Below, piece after piece: positions 22,215 to 37,121 of a DNA stretch of 64,000 bases. Both the position numbers and the translations under genes were made by a program. The stretch comes from Candidatus Bathyarchaeota archaeon. Its GTDB lineage: Archaea > Thermoproteota > Bathyarchaeia > Bathyarchaeales > Bathycorpusculaceae. How positions within the stretch are numbered: the stretch's first letter is position 1; every line of letters begins with the position of its first letter. The stretch is from contig CAWDYC010000007.1 of NCBI GenBank assembly GCA_963806535.1, forward strand, positions 64,001 through 128,000. The letters are read 5' to 3'. The notes below the pieces were generated by a model that worked only from the letters and a program-made list of their open reading frames with translations, was not told where the DNA came from and searched no databases.

Positions 22215-23390
22215 TTATGCTTTTTTGGCTTTTAGTGCTTGTTTAAGTATTTCTGCCTTGTCGGTTTTTTCCCAGCTAAATTCTGGTTCTTCCCTTCCGA
22301 AGTGGCCAAAAACCGCTGTTTTCTTGTAGATTGGTCTAAGCAGGTCAAGTTGTTCAATGATTGCTTTTGGTCTCATGTCAAAGTTCTTCTTAATGAGCTC
22401 AAGAATTTGCTCGTCTACCAATTTCCCAGTTTGGTAAGTATTGACTAGCACCGAAATAGGTTCAGCCACGCCGATTGCATATGAAATTTGTATTTCGCAT
22501 TGATCAGCTAACCCGGCTGCGACAACGTTTTTGGCGATGTATCTTGCCATGTAGCAGCCTGAACGGTCTACTTTTGATGGGTCTTTGCCGCTGAAACATC
22601 CGCCACCGTGGCTTCCAACTCCACCATATGTGTCAACAATGATTTTTCTGCCGGTTAAGCCTGAGTCTGCAAGTGTTCCGCCGATAACGAATCTGCCTGT
22701 ACCATTAATAACATATTTCACGTCTGGGCTCAGCATATCTGGTGGAATAACATATTTTATGACCTTTTCTATAATATCGTCCTTAAGTTTGGCGTCGTCG
22801 AGTGTTCCATTGTTTTGGGCAGCAATAACCACCGCAGTAACGCATTTTGGTTTGCCATTCTCATATTGTACTGTAACTTGAGATTTGCAGTCAGGACGCA
22901 GACAAGGAATAAGTTTAGTTTTTCTGCATTCAGCTAATCGTTTAACAAGTTTATGCGCCAGCATAATTGGTAGTGGCATAAGCTCTTTTGTCTCGTTGCT
23001 TGCGTAGCCAAAAACCATGCCTTGATCTCCGGCGCCTTGCTCGTGACCCGCGGTTTCGTTTACTCCCATTGCAATATCTGGAGACTGCGCGGTCAATGAA
23101 ACCAAAATGCCGCAGGTTTCCCAGTCCAAACCATCCTTCGCATTGTCAAACCCGATTTCTTTTAGGGTTTGGCGAACAATTTTTGGGATATCAATATAGG
23201 TGCAGGTGGTAATTTGACCAGTAATCATTACGGTTCCCTGCATAACGAGTGTTTCACAGTCAACTCGTGCTTTAGGGTCGTGGGTAAATATTGCGTCTAA
23301 AACGCTGTCGGATATTTGGTCTGATACTTTATCTGGGTGACCTTCACCGACTGATTCAGAAGTGAACAAATATTTTCCGTTTATTCTCAC
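22215..23390 (-). CDS. metK: S-adenosylmethionine synthetase, bacterial/eukaryotic type
   Basis: [35 protein letters not shown]; GTG start at 23390 preferred. Confidence 0.95.
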
Positions 23391-23551
23391 AGGAATCTTT
23401 CTCCATGCTTTAATGAATAAGAACATAAGTAACTTGGCGTTTTTCTTAAAAGTCTTTCTGAAAAACAAGCATCTAATTAACGAAGAACAATAGTTGAACT
23501 CAGGACAAAAACCATTTTAACCCGTTAAACACCCAGAAGAATGAGAAAGAA

Positions 23552-24047: not shown

Positions 24048-25328
24048 TTACTTTTGGTTCCAATAAATATTGTATGCTGAAACGAAAGCAGTAAAGTCTT
24101 TAGAGTCTATTTTGCCGTCATGATTAAAGTCCGCCGCAGGATTAACATAGCCATTATTCCAATAAGAATTGTAAGCTCGCGAGAAGGCTATAAAGTCATT
24201 TCCGTCAACTCTAAAGTCGCCATTCAAGTCGCCTTTAGGAGTTACCCCGAGTGTTATTGGCGAAAAAGTGTTAGCCTGCCCCGATGAAGACTCAACATAG
24301 GCAGTAATCGTATAGTTTCCTATAGGCAAGTTTTCGCTGCCCAAAGAGCTGTTTATAATTATTGAGTTTCCGCTACCTAAAGTCTCCGTTCCATTGTATA
24401 TTAAGGTTGAAAAGTTTTTGGAAGTTGCAATCAAGTGAAATTGCGCGGTCTCTGAAGAGCTGCCCTTATTCTGCAATGAAATGCCTACGGGGAATGTAAA
24501 ACCGGACTCCACAAGAGATTGCTGCAGCATAATGTTAGTAACTGTAATGTTTGAAGGTGAAGAAGCAGTGGTAGCAGAATCAACAGGATTTATCAAAAAT
24601 ACAGGGTCAGCAAACCAACAATTGGCATTTGCTGATACATCACGCCCTTCAAACCAAGGAACCACAGAATCGATCTGAACAGAACTACATGAATAAGGTG
24701 CAAAGGGCAATGAATTAGACGAAATTGTAACATAATTATAATACGTAGTTGGAACTGTCAAATCCCAAGTTATCTGCGTCCAATCTTGACCCCAATGAAC
24801 ATAAGTTATTCCTCCCGTAAAACTGCTATAATCTTGTTCGATTTCTGCATTTTGCGGGTGCCCTGCTTGATGCCCCGCAGTATCAACAGTGGCTATTCCA
24901 TAACCCAAATTACTATGAATGTAAAAGTCTAAGCCTATTTCTGCTCCAGAATATTGACTGTTACTTGTGTAGGTTGCAGTTTTTATCCATGCCGAAAACA
25001 CAATATGGTCGCCTGGTTTAACGTTGAGCCAAGCTCCGTCAACCTCTCTTGTACCCCTAACATAGTCTGGTCCCGTCCGAATACTAACATCACCATTATG
25101 AAGAGTGCCATAATCAAGAGACGCATAAGAAGCAGCTGCACCATTCATATCAGGATAGAAGGCACTAATAGGTTCCAAATTTAGTGAAGAAGAGGGGGAA
25201 ACCGTAGTTGTACTATGAACAAGCAAAGTCAAGAACGGAAATAATGCCAAAACCACAAGAAACAACAAACAAAAAGATTTACGACTATTCTTAATTACGC
25301 ATCCCCTCATCCCGTAATCCTCAAACAT
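24048..25328 (-). CDS. Secreted protein: CBM-like beta-sandwich + CARDB-like domain + C-terminal dockerin
   Basis: Signal/TM segment; duplicated Ca-loops GDLNGDFRVDGND and ADFNHDGKIDSKD. Confidence 0.8.
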   Translation of the reverse strand: MFEDYGMRGCVIKNSRKSFCLLFLVVLALFPFLTLLVHSTTTVSPSSSLNLEPISAFYPDMNGAAASYASLDYGTLHNGDVSIRTGPDYVRGTREVDGAWLNVKPGDHIVFSAWIKTATYTSNSQYSGAEIGLDFYIHSNLGYGIATVDTAGHQAGHPQNAEIEQDYSSFTGGITYVHWGQDWTQITWDLTVPTTYYNYVTISSNSLPFAPYSCSSVQIDSVVPWFEGRDVSANANCWFADPVFLINPVDSATTASSPSNITVTNIMLQQSLVESGFTFPVGISLQNKGSSSETAQFHLIATSKNFSTLIYNGTETLGSGNSIIINSSLGSENLPIGNYTITAYVESSSGQANTFSPITLGVTPKGDLNGDFRVDGNDFIAFSRAYNSYWNNGYVNPAADFNHDGKIDSKDFTAFVSAYNIYWNQK

Positions 25329-26144: not shown

Positions 26145-26906
26145 TTATGTTGTGTATTTTTCGCCTTCGTTTAAAATCCGTTCAAGAGTCGTATTAATGT
26201 TGGTCATTCCCTCATTTGTTTTTGAAGAAAGAGGCATAAGCAAGAATTTCATACCGAGTTTATTTATCGCTTGCATCATATTACGGCTAAAAAGGCGTTT
26301 CGTACCTTCTAGTTTCTCTTCTATGGCGTCTTCAAGTGCTCTGGTGTTAGCTGACCAAGAAGCAATTGCCTGAACATCCTTTTTCGGTAACAAATCAGTT
26401 TTAGACAGCACATGAAGTTGGGGCTGGAAAAAACGGTTGAAAACAGCGGCTGAAAGAAACATGTTTGAGACATAGTTAAGTGGGTTAATTGAGAAGACTG
26501 CGTCAAAGAGGTAAATTAACGCCTTAGGCTCTTTTGTTAACTCGTTGACTATATACGGTCCGCTTGCTCTAAAGGCAAATAATTCCATTTGTCCAGGAGT
26601 ATCAACTAAAACAAAGTCAGCGTGAGCTTCCTCGATATCACGGGTTAAATTTTCAATTTCATCCGCAATTAAATCAGCGGCCATAATCAAAGCGCCATTC
26701 GGCCCCAAACCATACTTCTCCATTATATCGCCAACATCAACGTAATTGCGTACATCAACATCTGGAGAATATGGAAGTTTTAATGCTCCAGGATCCAAAT
26801 TGACCACAGCAACATCTTGTTTTGACATTTTCAGCCATTCACTAAACGCGGCTGTAAAAAGGGACTTACCAGAACCAGCTGTTCCAATAATAAACGTAAG
26901 AGGCAC
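26145..26906 (-). CDS. GPN-loop GTPase (ATP/GTP-binding protein)
   Basis: GTAGSGKS P-loop, NLDPG, GPNG, DTPGQMELF; start at GTG 26906 or ATG 26936. Confidence 0.9.
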   Translation of the reverse strand: MPLTFIIGTAGSGKSLFTAAFSEWLKMSKQDVAVVNLDPGALKLPYSPDVDVRNYVDVGDIMEKYGLGPNGALIMAADLIADEIENLTRDIEEAHADFVLVDTPGQMELFAFRASGPYIVNELTKEPKALIYLFDAVFSINPLNYVSNMFLSAAVFNRFFQPQLHVLSKTDLLPKKDVQAIASWSANTRALEDAIEEKLEGTKRLFSRNMMQAINKLGMKFLLMPLSSKTNEGMTNINTTLERILNEGEKYTT

Positions 26907-27074
26907 TTTAATATCTCCAACCAACGATTGAATCATTCTAAAAGTAATAACCTTTCTGTAATAATCCCTTTTATTGTAACTAGTTTTAGTTTTTAGACCT
27001 ATGATTAGCCAACGGAGGATGAGTGTTATGCAGAGTGTGTAGCTAAACCAAATGGGCTTGGGTGTAATCATTTT

Positions 27075-27195
27075 AAAACTAATTGCTCAGCGAATCTAAC
27101 GTTCAACAAGGTGGGATAAGATTGGGGATTATATGGGCTGTTAAACGTTGATTCGCTGAGGCATTCCATTTGATGGACTGTATTTCTCGGCAATA
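27075..27195 (-). ncRNA. Candidate small RNA unit 1 (long hairpin, CU-rich loop)
   Basis: Stem ctcagcgaatc/gattcgctgag extended by aacgtttaaca/tgttgaacgtt; promoter-like ATAG-N15-CTTAA at 27241-27218; ends and strand inferred. Confidence 0.45.
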
Positions 27196-27315
27196 GGACA
27201 TACTATCATGGCGATTCTTAAGAATTTCACAAATATTCTATAGATTAAAAAGTAAACTACATTGAATTAGTAGGTGAGATCATTATTCTGCAGAATTTCA
27301 TTTTTAACACTTAAG

Positions 27316-27472
27316 AAAAAAAAGTCGTATCTGCCTTGGCGGATCAACGATAACTAGGAGCGTGCATAGGAAACGGGGAGGAGTCATGGCAAAATAGGAG
27401 TGGCTCACACCTGTGTCAGCGTTGATTCGCCAAGGCTACTGGTCGAGTGGTGAGGTAGCCGCCTTATGGCTA
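27316..27472 (-). ncRNA. Candidate small RNA unit 2 (paralog of unit 1)
   Basis: 17-bp stem 27333-27349 / 27420-27436; promoter-like ATAG-N15-CTTAA at 27520-27497; T8 tract at 27323-27316. Confidence 0.5.
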
Positions 27473-27650
27473 AACTATTGAAGCGTAACCTAGAAATTAA
27501 GAGTTATACCAATAAACTATGTAGAAAATAGAAAACAATTTAATGTTTTATGGAGATAACCAATTTTTGGAAAAAGTATTGCTGAATTAAAATGGAAATC
27601 AAAATGCTTACCTATGAGAAATTAACTAATAACTTAGTGTAGTGCTTTGT

Positions 27651-27893
27651 TTATCTAAATGTTGCGCGTATCAATCGCTGGTAAATATAGATAAAGTAGA
27701 TTGCAGCGAAAGCTGTTAGTGTCACTTCAATTGTTAGGATTGATGGGCTTGACTCTACCGCTTTGAAATACCCTTGCATGAGGATGTCGGAAAAGACAAG
27801 GATTTGGAGGAAAATTGCACCGCCTAAACAGCTTAAGCCTAAACTGTGAATAACTAGGCTGATTCGATGATTTAGTTTTGGGTCGATAGTCAT
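27651..27893 (-). CDS. Small 2-TM membrane protein
   Basis: 80-aa ORF with two hydrophobic helices, downstream of pstB. Confidence 0.65.
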   Translation of the reverse strand: MTIDPKLNHRISLVIHSLGLSCLGGAIFLQILVFSDILMQGYFKAVESSPSILTIEVTLTAFAAIYFIYIYQRLIRATFR

Positions 27894-30755: not shown

Positions 30756-32729
30756 TTAACTCGGGCTATTGTAAGATATATAAGAGTTCATGAAAACAAT
30801 AAAATCCTTGGAGGTTATTTTTCCATCCTGATTAAAATCGGCTAAACCATTATAAACACTGAGATTTACTCGGTTAAAACCTACGTACGCTCCAGCAAAT
30901 GATATAAAGTCGTGACCATCAACTTTGAATTCACCGTTTAAATCACCTAAATATGTTATCTCCGCCATCTCTATTGTCGTATTCTTGGAATTAATGCTAG
31001 CTGTTATTGTGTAGTTTCCGACAGATAGGTTGCTCGTGTCTATTTGGGAAATAGCATTCGATGAATTATCGCTTATTACGACCGTATCGTTATACTCAAG
31101 TTTGTCGTTGGCGTAGATTTGAATCGTATTGGAGCCGTTTTGAACTGGTACGTTGATTGATAGCGGGAAACCTTTTTCAGTGTATGTATAATTAAGCGGT
31201 GATTCATGTTGACTATTGCCTGTATACATGTATATTCGATTTGTTGGTAATTGTCCAAGAAAATTTGCATCGACGACGGAATTCCAATCAGAAGCAAAAG
31301 TAACATTCCAAACGCCGATTTTGTTGAAGTAGAGGGATAGTGGCGTTGACCCATACAAGAAAGTTAGGTTGCCTGTTGCTGCTATCGGAATTAGGACGGA
31401 GTTTGAGCTAAAGTCTATTGCGGTAAGATCCTTATCAATTATATTGTAGTTGTATTCATAGTGAAGTTCTTCGAGAGGTACGGCCAGCTTAGCTGTTGTT
31501 TGTATTATTGCCAAATTAATCAGCAGATTTGCAGCAAGCGCTGTAGCTGAGTCGCTAGGAACTGCGTCTGAACGGATTCTGTATAGTCCAGTAGATTGAT
31601 CATAAAGCCCTGCTGAAGGGTCACTAAGCAAACTCCATGCTGGTATGTTCAGATTGCTTCCTGTTGTAATATTGTATGCTGCGCCGTTTAGCATTTCCTG
31701 AATTTTGTTTTGATCAGATGGGGGAAGCAAAGGATAAGTTGCGATTATTGATTGCCACGTCATTTGTGTGTTTTCAAGTCTTCTCTGTGAATTCGAGTCG
31801 GCATGTTGGACCACATAGTCGAGCCATTGGGGACTATTCCATAAGCTAGCTAAGTATCGGCTATGTATGTCTGTTAATAAGTTCTGTGTATTTGTAATAT
31901 TGGAATCATAGTTATACAACTTCCAAATTATTTGTTCAAAGCCGCCAGCTTCACATTCATAGAGCCCGTTAGCGGAAGTATATCCGTAGTACGCTCCGTT
32001 CCAATAATGCGCATTTTCGAAATTCCACAGGTCAACTGACCGATTTAATGCTTGAGAGATGCCAAACCTGTAAAACTCCAAATATCCATCAAGAGATTGA
32101 CCAGTTTCATCGTAATACCTTCCTGTGTAGGGTGACGCTGTGTTATCCCCGCGAATCCAAAGTGGTGGCGTTCCATAACTTGCCTGACTATATTTAACGG
32201 CAGTGTCATAGCTATTGTAAGCCAAAGTTATATTCCATTTAGATAAGTCATATTGATATTTGGCTGCCCAATAATATCCATATATCAAATACCTATCATA
32301 AACACAAAAGCATTGCAAACCTTGCAAATCATAAAATTCAGCTGGCAAATCATTAGCCATCAAAGACGCAGCATCAAGGGCACGTTCTATAGTTGTTTGG
32401 TTTGCCAAATTGTATTTGTCAACCACAGCATACCAATACATTATTGAATTCCAATCTGAACTAGGTAAAGCGTCAATCATAGTTTGAAATTCTTGTGGCG
32501 TTACCGTCCCTATGCTCAGGCCCATATATGCGGTATCTAAGTCTTTAGTAAAATTAGTGTTGCTGACAAGATTCTTTATCGTGTTAGCTAATGTAGGATT
32601 ACTGACGGAATCACCAAGGGTGGGTGTAATTGATATCATACTGGTGAGAAATACAATTATCAAACCTACTACTAGGATTTTCCTGTAATTTAATCTTTCA
32701 GCTTTAAAAATGCCTGGAATATGAGACAA
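30756..32729 (-). CDS. Secreted helical (possible alpha/alpha-barrel GH-like) protein with C-terminal dockerin
   Basis: Signal peptide; Tyr/Trp-rich core (RYYDE, YECEAG); GDLNGEFKVDGHD and ADFNQDGKITSKD. Confidence 0.75.
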   Translation of the reverse strand: MSHIPGIFKAERLNYRKILVVGLIIVFLTSMISITPTLGDSVSNPTLANTIKNLVSNTNFTKDLDTAYMGLSIGTVTPQEFQTMIDALPSSDWNSIMYWYAVVDKYNLANQTTIERALDAASLMANDLPAEFYDLQGLQCFCVYDRYLIYGYYWAAKYQYDLSKWNITLAYNSYDTAVKYSQASYGTPPLWIRGDNTASPYTGRYYDETGQSLDGYLEFYRFGISQALNRSVDLWNFENAHYWNGAYYGYTSANGLYECEAGGFEQIIWKLYNYDSNITNTQNLLTDIHSRYLASLWNSPQWLDYVVQHADSNSQRRLENTQMTWQSIIATYPLLPPSDQNKIQEMLNGAAYNITTGSNLNIPAWSLLSDPSAGLYDQSTGLYRIRSDAVPSDSATALAANLLINLAIIQTTAKLAVPLEELHYEYNYNIIDKDLTAIDFSSNSVLIPIAATGNLTFLYGSTPLSLYFNKIGVWNVTFASDWNSVVDANFLGQLPTNRIYMYTGNSQHESPLNYTYTEKGFPLSINVPVQNGSNTIQIYANDKLEYNDTVVISDNSSNAISQIDTSNLSVGNYTITASINSKNTTIEMAEITYLGDLNGEFKVDGHDFISFAGAYVGFNRVNLSVYNGLADFNQDGKITSKDFIVFMNSYISYNSPS

Positions 32730-32741
32730 AGAAGCAATCCT

Positions 32742-35700
32742 CTAAGTCCCAGTCCCGTTTGTGCTCCAGTAGGTATTCCATCCATCTATGAAAAGCGCAA
32801 TATCCTGGGAGTTTATCTTACCGTCGCCATTGAGATCGCAAATTGGATTAACTGTTCCGTTATTGTAGTAATGAATGTAAGCGTCAAATATGATAACGGC
32901 GTCGTCAAAGCCGACTGAACCATCATGATTGAAATCGATTGTTGGAATCATTGGATTTAAGTTGCTGTTGACTGTGAGTTGAGCATTACCTGTTATTCCG
33001 TTAGATGTTGCAGTCACTGTCCAAATGCCGGAGTTTGACGCGGTGTATGCGTTTCCTGTCCAACTGCCACCGGCTGACAGGTTTGCAAGCCAGTTCACGT
33101 TGTTGGTTATATCCCATGTATTACCATTTAAATCTGAAGCATTCGCAGTAAATGATTGACTTGTTCCTGCTTCAATGGTTGAAGAAGTGGGAGTAATAGA
33201 AATTGTGTGTATTTGTCCGTGAGTAACTGTTAAAAAGGCGAGATCCGACAAACCGTTAAGAGAAGCAGTAATTGTCCATGTTCCTGCTTTGGCAGAGGTG
33301 TAAATGTTGCTGGACCAAGATCCTCCTGCGTTTGGATCAACGGTCCAAACAATAGTTGGTGTGATATCCCATGAGTTGCCAAATGAATCTGTTGCAAGAG
33401 CGGTTAATGACTGAGTAGAACCTGATTCAAATGATTGTGTTTTTGGCAATACGGAAATGCTGCTTGCTGAAGCGTGACCTACAATTACTGGAGCGATTGC
33501 TAATAATCCACCGACCATAGCGGTAATTGTCCATGTTCCAACTTTGGCGGCTGTATATGTATTAGCGTTCCATGAGCCTGCAGCGCCTTGGCTTGAGCTC
33601 CAACTTGCAGAATTAGAAACATCCCAAGTGTTACCATAACTGTCAGTTGCTGAAGCGGAGTAAACTTCGTTTGATCCTGCCATAAGCGTAATATTATATG
33701 GAGCAACTTGAATACTCGTTGCTGTTCCATGGTTTACCGTCAAATAAACGGATTTTGATATATTGTTGAATGTTCCAGTGATGTTCCAGACGCCTGAAAA
33801 TTCTGAAGTATATACATTTCCTAATAGAGTTCCACCGGCGCTTGAATCGATAGCCCAAATAGTTGAGCTAGTAACATCCCATGTATTGCCATTGGCGTCG
33901 CTTGCGGTGGCAGTGAAAGCTTGGGAAGAACCGGCAATAACAGATCCCGAGGAAGATCCTACTGTTATGCTTACTTCAGAACTGTGATTTACGATTACTG
34001 AGGTACTGCTTGATAATCCTGAATAAGTTCCTGTTACAGTCCAATCTCCTGCTGTATAGGAAGTGTATATATTGTTGCTCCATGTGCCAGATGCACCTGT
34101 ATCAATAGACCAACTTGTTGAGCTTGTTACGTCCCAGGTGTTTCCGCTTGAGTCAGAAGCTTTGGCAATAAAAGCTTGATTAAAACCAGCTATAATGATT
34201 GTTGAATCTGGACTTATAGTAAGGCTAATTGGAGATCCGTGATTAATTGCTACTGAAGCTGAATCTGACAAACTTCCTAAGGTAGCAGTAACTTGATAGT
34301 TGCCGGCATTTGCAGAATTATAGATGTTATTATTCCATGTGCCGTCAGCTCCAGAACTTATTGCCCAGTTTACTGAACCGCTTATATCCCATGAATTTTG
34401 ATAATTATCTGAGGCTAAAGCGGTGTATGATTCGGCAGATCCAGCAGTTATTGTTGCTGTTTTCGGCGATATAGTTAAGCCTGTTGCTTGTGCGTGATCC
34501 ACGGTTAAATAAGCGTAATCAGTGCAACCTAAATAAAGCCCTGAAACAGTCCAGCTTCCTGATGTTGAAGATGTATATTGATTAGCATTCCAATAGCCTC
34601 CTGCATTTTGTGATATTGACCATTGCGTTAAAGTGGTAACTGGCCACTGGTTACTGTAGATATCCGACGCTAGGGCTGAGTATACTTGATTGTTGCCAGC
34701 CACGATTTCGTTGTGATTTGGGCTTATTGCTAAGCTGACTGGTGATGCATGAGTTACTGTTAGCTGAGCTGTATCAGACAAACCTAAGCTTATGGCGGTA
34801 GCGTACCAAGTTCCTGCTATGGCAGAACTATATACATCATCTGACAAAGAACCACCTGCTTGTGAATCAATAAAAAATGTTGCCGAAGCTGTTGAGTCCC
34901 AACTATTTCCGTAAGAATCAAATGCTGTCGTGGTAAAAGTTTGTTGTGAACCAGCAACTATGTTGGGTGTTTTTGGGTCAACTTGAATGTGCGTTGCAAT
35001 TCCATGAATTATGCTTAGAGAAGCGGTGTCGGAGTAGCTCCCACATGTACCAGAAATAATCCATGTGCCTACTTTGCCACCATTATAAGTATTGCCGTTC
35101 CATGTTCCACCAGCTCCAGAATCTATTGTAAAAACAGTCGAGCTGGTAACATCCCATGTATTGCCAAAGCTATCACCTGCTAAAGCTGCAAAAGTATTTG
35201 GTGAACCAGCAGACAAACTGGATATTTTTGGAGATAACGTTAGGCTGGTTTGTGAACCATGAGTTATCGTTAAAGAGGCTGTTCCAGACAAGCTTGAGTA
35301 TTGACCTGTAATAATCCAGGTTCCGGCTTTAGCTGATGAATATATATTTCCGCTCCATGAACCGCCAGCGCTTGAATCAACACCCCAACTTGTTGAATCC
35401 GTAATGCTCCACGAATTTCCGTAATTATCTATTGCATTGCTTGCGAAAGTTATTGATGATCCCGCTGTAGCCAAATTTGTGTTTGTAAGCACAACAATTC
35501 TTGCCGGTAATGCATGGTTAACAGTTAGTGAGGAGGTATCTGATCTTCCTAAATACGTAGCAGTTACGGTAAAAATGCCCGCTTTGCTAGAAATGTACTG
35601 ATTTCCTATCCAGGTACCATCTGCACCAGAACTAATACTCCAAGTAATTAGACTCGTAACATCCCAAATATTACCGTAAACATCAGCCGCCAGAACCGTA

Positions 35701-36977
35701 AAAGTTCTGGAGTCGCCAGCGGTTAGAGTTGCTGTTTTAGGAGAAATTGATAAACTGGAAATAGGACCGTAATCAACGCTTATTGATGCTGTGTCAGAGC
35801 ATCCACCGATTGAAGCTGTGACGGCCCATGTGCCATATTTAGCTGACTTGTAAGTATGGCCATTCCAAGATCCTTCAGCGCCAGAACTAATACTCCATTT
35901 GGCAGCACTAGAGACATCCCAACTATTACCATAAGCATCAGAAGCCGTGGCCGTAAAAGTCAAACTCTGTCCAGCAATTTCAGCCGAGTTTTTTGGGGAA
36001 ATTAATATGCTAGCTGCCGCGGCAGGCGTAACTGTTAGTGAGGCTGTGTCTGAAAAAGTGCCTAATGAAGCTGTTATAGTCCATGTGTTAGCTTTCGCCG
36101 AAGTATAAGTATTACCGTTCCAGGATCCACCAGCACCAGAACTAATACGCCAGGTAATTAGACTGGTAACATCCCAATTGTTGCCATAACTGTCAAATGC
36201 ATTAACTGTAAAAGATTTCGAAGCACCAGCTGTCAAAGTTGCTGTTTTAGGAGATATTACTATACTGGTTGTCAAACCATGGTTTACTGTCAAAGAAGCT
36301 GAGTCAGTAAAACCTAAATAGGTGCCTGTTACCGTCCAAGTTCCAGTTTGAGAAGAGGTATAAACGTTTGCTGACCAGGAGCCCCCGGCACCAGTTGTTA
36401 TGCTCCAACTTGAGATTGTTGATACATCCCACGAGTTGCCATAGTAGTCTTTCGCTGTAGCTGTGTAGGCTTGATTACTACGTGTGTTTACAGTCGCTGT
36501 TTTTGGAGCTATTTGGATTTGTGTCGCAGATGCATGATTAACCGAGATTGAACTTGTTGTCGCAGAAACTGCTCCATCGGTTACAGTAATGGTTTGCGAG
36601 CCTGAAGTCACCAAGTTAAATCCACAGAAAGTATGAGCCCCTTTATCGTGACCGGGAGTAAAATGGTATTCGCACTGAGCTGAGTAAGGCAGAGTCGCCT
36701 TAGAATCGGTCGATAAGAAGTAGACATATCCGTTATAATTAGTTACAATTTTCCCGTTAGCGTTATAGGCCGTTATTGTTATGCAGCCGAAGCTTTTTCC
36801 GGCGACGACTGAAGCAGGAAAACCTGTTATTGTAAAGTGGTCAGGAGTGTGTTTAGCCTCGCTGTTAAGTACTTGTGGTTTAGAGACCATAATTTCTGAA
36901 CTGCCGATACTTGAAATCAATATTATGAGCGTCAGCGCAATAGCCAGCGCTACATTTCCAATAGCAAGCCTTCTCAT
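32742..36977 (-). CDS. Large secreted Ig-repeat protein (14 x 85 aa) with C-terminal dockerin
   Basis: Repeat motif SPK..AG..FTA.A.D.YGN.WDVT...W...GAGGSW.GN.Y; DFNHDGSVGFDD and DLNGDGKINSQD. Confidence 0.9.
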   Translation of the reverse strand: MRRLAIGNVALAIALTLIILISSIGSSEIMVSKPQVLNSEAKHTPDHFTITGFPASVVAGKSFGCITITAYNANGKIVTNYNGYVYFLSTDSKATLPYSAQCEYHFTPGHDKGAHTFCGFNLVTSGSQTITVTDGAVSATTSSISVNHASATQIQIAPKTATVNTRSNQAYTATAKDYYGNSWDVSTISSWSITTGAGGSWSANVYTSSQTGTWTVTGTYLGFTDSASLTVNHGLTTSIVISPKTATLTAGASKSFTVNAFDSYGNNWDVTSLITWRISSGAGGSWNGNTYTSAKANTWTITASLGTFSDTASLTVTPAAAASILISPKNSAEIAGQSLTFTATASDAYGNSWDVSSAAKWSISSGAEGSWNGHTYKSAKYGTWAVTASIGGCSDTASISVDYGPISSLSISPKTATLTAGDSRTFTVLAADVYGNIWDVTSLITWSISSGADGTWIGNQYISSKAGIFTVTATYLGRSDTSSLTVNHALPARIVVLTNTNLATAGSSITFASNAIDNYGNSWSITDSTSWGVDSSAGGSWSGNIYSSAKAGTWIITGQYSSLSGTASLTITHGSQTSLTLSPKISSLSAGSPNTFAALAGDSFGNTWDVTSSTVFTIDSGAGGTWNGNTYNGGKVGTWIISGTCGSYSDTASLSIIHGIATHIQVDPKTPNIVAGSQQTFTTTAFDSYGNSWDSTASATFFIDSQAGGSLSDDVYSSAIAGTWYATAISLGLSDTAQLTVTHASPVSLAISPNHNEIVAGNNQVYSALASDIYSNQWPVTTLTQWSISQNAGGYWNANQYTSSTSGSWTVSGLYLGCTDYAYLTVDHAQATGLTISPKTATITAGSAESYTALASDNYQNSWDISGSVNWAISSGADGTWNNNIYNSANAGNYQVTATLGSLSDSASVAINHGSPISLTISPDSTIIIAGFNQAFIAKASDSSGNTWDVTSSTSWSIDTGASGTWSNNIYTSYTAGDWTVTGTYSGLSSSTSVIVNHSSEVSITVGSSSGSVIAGSSQAFTATASDANGNTWDVTSSTIWAIDSSAGGTLLGNVYTSEFSGVWNITGTFNNISKSVYLTVNHGTATSIQVAPYNITLMAGSNEVYSASATDSYGNTWDVSNSASWSSSQGAAGSWNANTYTAAKVGTWTITAMVGGLLAIAPVIVGHASASSISVLPKTQSFESGSTQSLTALATDSFGNSWDITPTIVWTVDPNAGGSWSSNIYTSAKAGTWTITASLNGLSDLAFLTVTHGQIHTISITPTSSTIEAGTSQSFTANASDLNGNTWDITNNVNWLANLSAGGSWTGNAYTASNSGIWTVTATSNGITGNAQLTVNSNLNPMIPTIDFNHDGSVGFDDAVIIFDAYIHYYNNGTVNPICDLNGDGKINSQDIALFIDGWNTYWSTNGTGT
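32965..36540 (-). repeat. Intragenic 255-bp tandem repeat, 14 diverged copies
   Basis: WDV codons (acatccca) recur at 255-bp spacing, e.g. near 36424, 36169, 35914, 35659; boundaries approximate. Confidence 0.85.
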
Positions 36978-37121
36978 GTTTAGCCTTTCTCCAAGCAAGT
37001 TGGCTGGTGAACAATCTATTTACCACTTCTCCAAATAGAATCAATAGAGCTAAAGCTAATTTATTTATCAATAGATTTTCATTAGACAATTGAAAAAAAT
37101 ATGTTTATTGAATCTTGTTTA

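Follow-up and report, generated by a model that had tools for sequence, protein, structure and literature searches.

Two adjacent hairpins with matching extended promoters in a Bathycorpusculum genome, candidate genes of an undescribed small RNA superfamily

The window analysed here is a 64-kb stretch of DNA (C7:64001-128000) from the genome of an uncultured archaeon of soils and guts in the genus Bathycorpusculum (Bathycorpusculaceae, Bathyarchaeales, Bathyarchaeia), which is assembled to 2.95 Mb in 12 contigs, is 91.75% complete and has a G+C content of 39.8%. In the order pstB-orf80-U2-U1-GPN, and with an AbrB-PhoU gene near by, the window carries two inverted repeats, U1 (27084-27162) and U2 (27333-27436), which are very probably real non-coding RNA genes read from the minus strand. 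A preliminary description had proposed two paralogous structured RNA genes with matching promoters at this place, and folding, covariation and promoter comparison agree with it. The best explanation overall, favoured with modest confidence, is that U1 and U2 are two independently transcribed small RNA (sRNA) genes, each from a different subfamily of an RNA superfamily that the Bathycorpusculaceae would have and that is so far undescribed. Coordinates without a contig name are positions in the window.

The two hairpins in the window

27075..27191, minus strand: U1 RNA, about 117 nt, with predicted ends and a predicted start at the G of GCCGAG near 27191
27166-27176, minus strand: small hairpin in the U1 leader
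27162-27084, minus strand: U1 stem of 24 bp with one bulged base on the 3' arm
27137-27110, minus strand: C-rich loop of U1
27078-27075, minus strand: T4 run of U1
27320..27471, minus strand: U2 RNA, about 151 nt, with a predicted start near 27470 by reading of the sequence
about 27455-27471, minus strand: 5' hairpin of U2, UAGCC...GGCUA
27436-27333, minus strand: basal stem of U2, enclosing an inner stem and a C/U-rich apical loop
27327-27320, minus strand: T8 run of U2 (A8 on the plus strand)
27001..27071, no strand: third stem of the preliminary description, not a feature; it belongs to the region ahead of the gene listed next
26145-26939, minus strand: GPN-loop GTPase gene (Pfam PF03029), the match beginning 17 residues past the ATG at 26939

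The two long stems, the small hairpin ahead of each and the T8 after U2 were all located as described, and the CA/TG change between the two 5' arms is compensated by CGCTGAG and CGCCAAG in the 3' arms. The 17-mer CGTTGATTCGCYRAGGC, common to U1 and U2, has three matches in the window against 0.25 expected, a number reached in none of 100 shuffles. Both main hairpins fold better than shuffled sequences on both strands, with z scores of -7.6 (minus strand) and -3.4 (plus strand) for U1 and of -3.2 (minus strand) and -4.1 (plus strand) for U2. The stem that had been claimed at 27001-27071 did not withstand the same comparison: its z scores are +0.52 and +0.06, and 137 and 100 of 200 shuffles, respectively, fold at least as well.

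Covariation, strand and promoter

The alignment of U1 contains 29 sequences (A2) and yielded the covariance model R1, while 16 sequences of U2 (A4) yielded a model of their own, R2. Covariation among the homologues supports both stems, and the search of related genomes with these models recovered relatives. In A2 the stem is paired in 93% of cells, compared with 27-44% when the partner column is slid, and nine of the 24 pairs are altered on both sides; 0-1 of 500 shuffles match these pairing values, a control that ignores kinship and overstates significance, the slid columns being the fairer one. The stem of U2 is paired in 91.6% of the cells of A4 (27-42% with the partner slid), and 12 of 27 pairs, in 30 cells, are altered on both sides. 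U2 consists of a 12-pair basal helix, two short helices and a 6-bp inner helix; support for its 5' hairpin is weak, as 81% of the cells pair and a single pair is compensated. The overall plan of the RNA is a basal helix, a bulge on the 3' side, a second helix (in U2 also a third) and an unpaired C-rich apical loop of 28-50 nt. The basal helix GGCGRAUC/GAUYCGCC is conserved in sequence itself in U1 and U2, in a third type (type C) and in hairpins from other genera, and the rest of the RNA diverges; the bulge keeps its position and varies in its base.

The character of U1 is non-coding, in that a stop-free frame is present in 13 of 42 distinct sequences and the lengths are spread evenly over the three classes modulo 3. 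A frame of 41 codons with a TTG start that runs through U1 (27068-27193, minus strand) is not conserved in the orthologues and was set aside as a chance frame. Two further pairings were considered and rejected. Pairing of the leader GCCGAG with a CUCGGC in the 5' arm is conceivable, but the leader is unchanged in the seven of 29 sequences that have CUCAGC, without covariation, and a hairpin inside the U1 loop, UUGG-AUUC-CCAA, is absent from many orthologues.

The strand had been left uncertain in the preliminary description and is resolved in favour of the minus strand by the excess of G-U pairs, the promoter geometry and the T-runs. When the stems are read as minus-strand RNA, the ratio of G-U to A-C cells is 79:21 in U1 and 56:15 in U2, which argues for transcription from that strand. 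R1 scores the U1 of the window at 92.4 bits on the minus and 42.6 bits on the plus strand, and R2 scores U2 at 120.9 and 32 bits. A functional plus strand, making G-rich hairpin RNAs or mini open reading frames (ORFs) led by a Shine-Dalgarno (SD) sequence, such as GGAGGAGUC-AUG-GCA-AAA-UAG, would agree with the more stable plus-strand fold of U2 and with the SD+ATG-like strings in the plus-strand loops of the window. Such a reading would nevertheless put A-C mismatches in place of many G-U pairs and place the conserved promoter block downstream of the hairpin, with no T-run after it; the mini-ORFs are not conserved in orthologues, and the models give 43 against 92 bits (U1) and 32 against 121 bits (U2). 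It is regarded as scarcely credible.

Upstream of both hairpins the following promoter elements were recognized.

27237..27244, minus strand: upstream palindrome of U1, TCTATAGA, TATA-like, conserved in U1 orthologues within a 29-nt block
27216..27230, minus strand: core promoter of U1, with GTGAAAT (27230-27224) resembling a transcription factor B recognition element (BRE) and the TATA box TCTTAAGA (27223-27216)
27517..27524, minus strand: upstream TATA-like element of U2, CTACATAG in the window and CTAAATAG in orthologues
27496..27510, minus strand: core promoter of U2, BRE-like GTATAAC and TATA CTCTTAAT, from the sequence and alignment A4

The ATAG-N15-CTTAA element reported ahead of both units is present at 27216-27241 and 27495-27520; in its stricter form it occurs at these two sites only in the 2.95-Mb genome, and a loose form has 11 matches. 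A spacer of 13 bp separates the upstream element of U1, the perfect palindrome TCTATAGA, from the core TATA TCTTAAGA, which is itself equally palindromic. When the extended block TAGAYTATTKGTGNAAYTCTTAA was searched with up to two mismatches in 120 genomes of the genus, it was found in 55 of them, in 1-3 copies each (the reversed control pattern had one match), and every listed site that was compared with the matches of R1 and R2 coincides with one of these RNA genes. The 3' half of the block, GTGAAAC-TCTTAAGA (consensus GTGAAAY), has the same form as the promoters of the signal recognition particle (SRP) RNA and the tRNAs of the host genome: the tRNA genes carry RAAAG followed by YTTTAAAT or CTCTATAT, and the SRP RNA promoter reads GCGAAAG-ACTTAAAG, its TATA centre lying 28.5 nt ahead of the first base of the RNA. 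Over the 25 U1 loci where both points could be located, the distance from the TATA centre to the G of GCCGAG is 28.5 nt in 14 and 27.5-30.5 nt in 21. For U2, reading of the sequence by eye places the TATA centre 27.5-28.5 nt from the AGCC at 27471/27470. Since the 28.5 nt of U1 equals the spacing of the SRP RNA, its start is predicted near 27191, where GCCGAG begins some 28 nt past the centre of the TATA box, and the same reading puts the start of U2 near 27470. Given this predicted start, the T-rich CTCTATATTTT ahead of GCCGAG would be an AT-rich promoter-proximal element. A T-run of at least four within 25 nt past the stem is present in 21 of 28 loci.

The upstream palindrome is kept even at loci that lack the divergent gene, a 125-aa ORF described below. 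A role as promoter of this ORF was rejected, as a separate TATA-like box serves the ORF at a distance of about 170 nt; the palindrome may be the site of a regulator or a second site for the TATA-binding protein. At several loci linked to ftsY (L112, 1399-1423, and orthologues) a canonical TATA box, TTCTTTATAAAATATAG, stands about 28 nt upstream of the TCTATAGA palindrome, and a second, upstream start giving a longer RNA is possible there.

Distribution and gene neighbourhood

With blastn, 10 of the 24 genomes searched from the genus gave DNA similar to U1, as did none of 16 genomes of other families. The search with R1 detected U1 in 58 of the 120 genomes of the genus (39 of 73 when restricted to those at least 90% complete and at most 5% contaminated), and across the family, sampled evenly with 151 genomes from 70 genera, it matched only the genus itself and, weakly and once, genus g37. 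U2 scores only 10-15 bits with R1 and is therefore treated as a separate subfamily. It was found by blastn in 15 of 120 genomes of the genus, and by R2 above 100 bits in 16 and at E<=0.001 in 21 of 120; weaker matches of R2, to the hairpin only, occur in genera g26 and g45 and once in another family. Judged from these sequences, diverged hairpins are present in three or four further genera (g26, g37 and g45 being those named). The distant hairpins share GCUUUGGCGGRUCAACGUUAAAC, an inner GACGCG stem and a C-rich loop, and their upstream motif is a different one, CAGTCACAAGTTTATTTATAG. The third type (type C, GGCUUCCGCGGAUCGACG...) and a fourth (L111) have the g1 promoter or the basal helix in common. 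A weak R1 match at C11:158266 (21.6 bits) was discarded for want of a convincing hairpin and of the promoter block.

A pattern scan of metagenome contigs returned at least 119 stretches; examination of 80 loci gave four with true family members and five sense copies. The family members are all on contigs longer than 1.3 kb, and for this reason the contigs are uninformative on transcript ends. One metagenome contig of 5494 bp (L195/L196) carries three genes of the U1 type in a stretch of about 2.3 kb, the distance between two of these being about 250 nt, which shows that the family can expand in tandem. Contigs from bacterial metagenome-assembled genomes (MAGs), namely L045, L082 (MAG titled Acidoferrum), L047 (Limnocylindrales) and L080 (Dormibacteraeota), have the archaeal promoter block and a family hairpin; the sequences of L082 and L045 recur in L016 and L020, which are loci of a Bathycorpusculum genome, and the four contigs are probably Bathyarchaeia DNA in the wrong bin. 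At L102 two or more G+C-rich units of about 115 nt (GGGGATTCCCGTGCATAAGCGTTCTTCAC...), unrelated to the hairpin RNAs, stand in tandem behind a motif resembling the block, ATAGAATATTGGTGCAATTCGTAA; the motif may be a chance match to the pattern.

The host genome has two copies, and 1-3 copies per genome were counted across the 120 genomes of the genus, so that an interspersed repeat such as a miniature inverted-repeat transposable element (MITE) was rejected on copy number; the many copies named in the preliminary description as a sign of a MITE came to only two in the 2.95 Mb. The wider reading of the units as DNA-level elements (protein-binding cruciforms, origin-like elements or the ends of mobile elements) could draw on the fact that inverted repeats are by definition conserved as DNA, on the movement of the unit between loci (ftsY, pst and others) and on the three copies within 2.3 kb of one metagenome contig. 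Archaeal origins have clustered repeated boxes around an AT-rich stretch, and no such cluster is present in the sequence. The roughly 4 to 1 asymmetry of G-U over A-C is expected for RNA and not for DNA, and with the low copy number and the consistent orientation of promoter and T-run it makes this reading very improbable.

The usual neighbour of U1 is ftsY, the gene of an SRP54-type GTPase, which ends about 500-700 nt upstream on the same strand in 20 of 30 loci. Between the two lies, at 19 of 30 loci, the divergent 125-aa ORF, of no known family, and past U1 a small convergent ORF follows at 19 of 30 loci and an AHSA1-like gene at 15 of 30. The ftsY locus of the host genome itself is without the RNA and retains the divergent ORF. 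The loci of U2 are varied, the sole common neighbour being a flavodoxin-like gene in 6 of 16, and U1 and U2 stand apart from each other in four genomes (G016, G223, G268 and G276). The order pstB-orf80-U2-U1-GPN is common only to the window and the genomes G257 and G250, where the neighbouring proteins are 89-96% identical.

This distribution bears on the phosphate-responsive role proposed in the preliminary description, in which sRNAs of the pst locus would block translation starts through loops complementary to SD+ATG. The position directly downstream of pstB-orf80 and near the AbrB-PhoU gene is in its favour, as are three CUCCU motifs in the U2 loop of the window. An archaeal precedent also exists: sRNA132 of Haloferax volcanii is an intergenic sRNA that controls phosphate ABC transporter (pst) operons and pairs with the 3' untranslated region of its pst operon (PMC6560208), whereas U1 and U2 have no complementarity to the adjacent pstB above background. 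In that comparison, pairing of the pstB-orf80 mRNA with the unpaired parts of U1 and U2 was no better than that of random genome segments (rank 93 to 137 of 150). The pst neighbourhood is confined to the window genome and its close relatives G257 and G250, most U1 loci are near ftsY, and the SD+ATG complements are absent from orthologous loops. The proposal was accordingly not upheld, and a phosphate-specific role is improbable.

Other archaeal-type genes of the window are those of the GPN-loop GTPase (PF03029), the AbrB-PhoU fusion, pstB and the dockerin proteins. Large secreted proteins encoded at 24048-25328, 30756-32729 and 32742-36998 (all minus strand) have a common C-terminal segment, identified by Pfam as a dockerin (PF00404) in the first protein, the sole one of the three that was scanned. 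One secreted protein of 1418 aa is built of many Ig-like repeats. Together these proteins suggest a cellulosome-like surface system in an archaeon. The S-adenosylmethionine synthetase at 22215-23468 (minus strand) matches all three S-AdoMet_synt domains of Pfam (PF00438, PF02772 and PF02773), a three-domain type that is presumably the bacterial and eukaryotic MetK and not the archaeal one. In the host genome the RNase P RNA model RF00373 finds no more than a match of 22 bits (cut-off 84), at C9:153724-153912, compared with 145 bits for the SRP RNA; the RNase P RNA is either in the unassembled part or unusually diverged.

Possible function and comparison with known RNAs

The conserved unpaired parts of U1 are AUCCCCRA, (UUGGA)UUCCCMAAUCU and UUGCCCAU, and those of U2 are CUUGCCAUGAMAUC and UCCCC; short C-rich motifs are repeated in the apical loops, where UCCCC and UUGCC(C)AU occur. 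The host genome uses SD sequences in part of its genes, with AGGAG and GGTGA peaking at -15 to -10, and the 3' end of its 16S rRNA is GGAUCACCUCCU, also given as GGATCACCTCCT. Given this richness in C and the use of SD sequences by the host, the RNAs could pair with G-rich leaders. The C/U-rich loops and the SD+ATG-like strings on the plus strand, both noted before, are present, and pairing with translation starts stands as a possibility; the particular SD+ATG complements that had been quoted are peculiar to this genome, and the orthologues do not keep the strings.

Under the favoured explanation, the extended promoter (TCTATAGA, 13 bp, BRE/TATA GTGAAAY-TCTTAAGA) would drive each gene separately. 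The RNA would start at GCCGAG and for most genes end in an oligo-T run, giving products of about 117 and 151 nt. Its rigid stem would display the C-rich loop in trans, and the loop might pair with G-rich stretches of mRNA such as SD regions, in the manner of the loops directed against ribosome binding sites (RBS) in sRNA154 and sRNA41, discussed below. A dedicated regulator at the upstream palindrome could switch all paralogues together. The role of a trans base-pairing regulator is itself tentative and, taken on its own, doubtful.

A number of observations weigh against this explanation. The ends, strand and expression of U1 and U2 are read from sequence alone. The plus strand of U2 is the more stable one (-51.4 kcal/mol, against -37.4 kcal/mol on the minus strand), and the basal helix of U2 in the window has an A-C mismatch that is a G-U pair on the plus strand. 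CTCTATATTTT forms a second TATA-like element adjoining GCCGAG and some loci have further TATA-like boxes upstream, so that alternative start sites are possible. Seven of 28 loci lack the 3' T-run, which is a short one (T4-T5), and 62 of the 120 genomes of the genus have no U1 match. With respect to pairing, the SD+ATG complements of the loops are not conserved in orthologues, the canonical anti-SD CCUCC is no conserved loop motif, and no conserved mRNA target was found in a scan of gene starts, at an AHSA1 site or in the pstB mRNA. The complements of UUGCC(C)AU at gene starts, AUGGGCAA or AUGGCAA, gave 31-46 genome matches per 9-mer and no pattern among ORFs of at least 40 codons. Many U1 loops are complementary to the site in the neighbouring AHSA1 gene, GGCTGGAAAGAGTGGTATTGGAATCC; this site codes for a Trp-rich peptide that is conserved, shows no covariation with the loop and was rejected as a target. 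The conservation of the basal helix as sequence across the subfamilies fits recognition by a protein at least as well as pairing with mRNA.

The last point leads to the alternative that U1 and U2 belong to a protein complex as its RNA component, or act as its decoy; a protein would read the basal helix and bulge and the C-rich loop would bind or titrate a second protein, without pairing to the mRNAs of particular genes. CsrB/RsmZ and 6S RNA are the models for comparison. The helix GGCGRAUC/GAUYCGCC, kept in sequence from U1 and U2 to type C and other genera, the bulge of constant position and variable base, and the loops with repeated C-rich motifs and without a conserved mRNA target would all be accounted for. 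On the other hand, no candidate protein is linked to the RNA and its neighbours vary between loci; the divergent 125-aa ORF is served by a promoter of its own and persists at the host ftsY locus, where the RNA is absent. We know of no archaeal regulator that binds poly-C. A protein-binding or decoy role is judged rather unlikely.

A likeness to GGAUCACCUCC, the 3' tail of the 16S rRNA, is seen in the loop motif UGGAUUCCC of U1 and, in one species, in GAUCACC. The superfamily might on this basis be the RNA core of an archaeal regulatory particle, in which a protein clamps the basal helix and bulge and the C-rich loop mimics the 16S tail. The RNA would then soak up SD-led mRNAs or a factor binding the 16S tail, and a regulator would act through the TCTATAGA-N13-TCTTAAGA box. 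This idea, which is quite unlikely, would if true amount to a global translation brake for the Bathycorpusculaceae.

The known RNA classes compared here do not account for the hairpins. No match was obtained with Rfam 15 for the whole window at the gathering thresholds, and at E<=10 the region 26800-27800 gave four matches of 11.9-22.8 bits, against thresholds of 40-86 bits. The identity of U1 as SRP (7S) RNA was weighed, since most U1 genes are about 500 nt from ftsY; the canonical archaeal SRP RNA is elsewhere in the genome (C4:359408-359723, 145 bits), so U1 is not that RNA, and neither hairpin matches RF01857. In archaeal box H/ACA guides the lower stem measures about 9-10 bp, the pseudouridylation pocket is two-sided, the upper stem contains a K-turn or K-loop, and ACA adjoins the stem directly on its 3' side. 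The stem of U1 is a continuous 24 bp with a single bulge, it is followed by CAAUU and not ACA, and there is no H/ACA match in Rfam. Archaeal box C/D guides have a C box (RUGAUGA) near the 5' end, a D box (CUGA) near the 3' end and a K-turn; here CUGA lies within the paired 3' arm, the leader is without RUGAUGA, and Rfam again gave no match. A literature search, outside of which most subscription journals fell, found nothing on the U1/U2 family or on non-coding RNAs of Bathyarchaeia.

Bathyarchaeia reach high abundance in soils, peat, sediments and termite guts, and to our knowledge none is genetically tractable. The superfamily is well defined and supported by covariation, and it is a candidate for RNA databases, for the annotation of more than 60 genomes and for tracking in metatranscriptomes. 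The locus offers one of the clearest gene-specific extended promoters in Bathyarchaeia, with a predicted start site. Should the upstream box be the site of a regulator, it would define a small RNA regulon whose signal and targets could be searched for.

The working model is taken from Methanosarcina mazei, where sRNA154 and sRNA41 mask ribosome binding sites in trans by loops with an anti-RBS sequence (PMC5867862). These are likewise stand-alone archaeal sRNA genes with stable stem-loops; they differ in having experimental targets and nitrogen-dependent expression, U1 and U2 being known only as sequences, and they have no similarity to U1 and U2 in sequence or structure, the latter having UCCCC and UUGCC(C)AU in their loops rather than CCUCC, and a sequence-conserved basal helix (PMC5867862). 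U1 and U2 constitute an RNA family that is new to Rfam and whose kind is familiar; the private promoter is unusually well defined. Among bacteria, the RsaE/RoxS-type sRNAs of Firmicutes pair with G-rich SD regions by unpaired C-rich loop motifs and are conserved over a genus or family along with a dedicated regulator site at the promoter; they have sigma-70 promoters and rho-independent terminators. U1 and U2 are like them in their C-rich loops and in the genus- to family-wide conservation with a promoter box, whereas the bacterial RNAs are much shorter and unrelated in sequence, and the Rfam models of such families gave no match. Qrr, PrrF1/2 and RsmX/Y/Z are paralogous bacterial sRNAs, sometimes in tandem, with a common upstream box and the regulators LuxO, Fur and GacA. 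Their regulators are known and the TCTATAGA-N13-TCTTAAGA box is without a known binder, but U1 and U2 resemble them in the presence of several paralogues per genome, each with the same upstream box.

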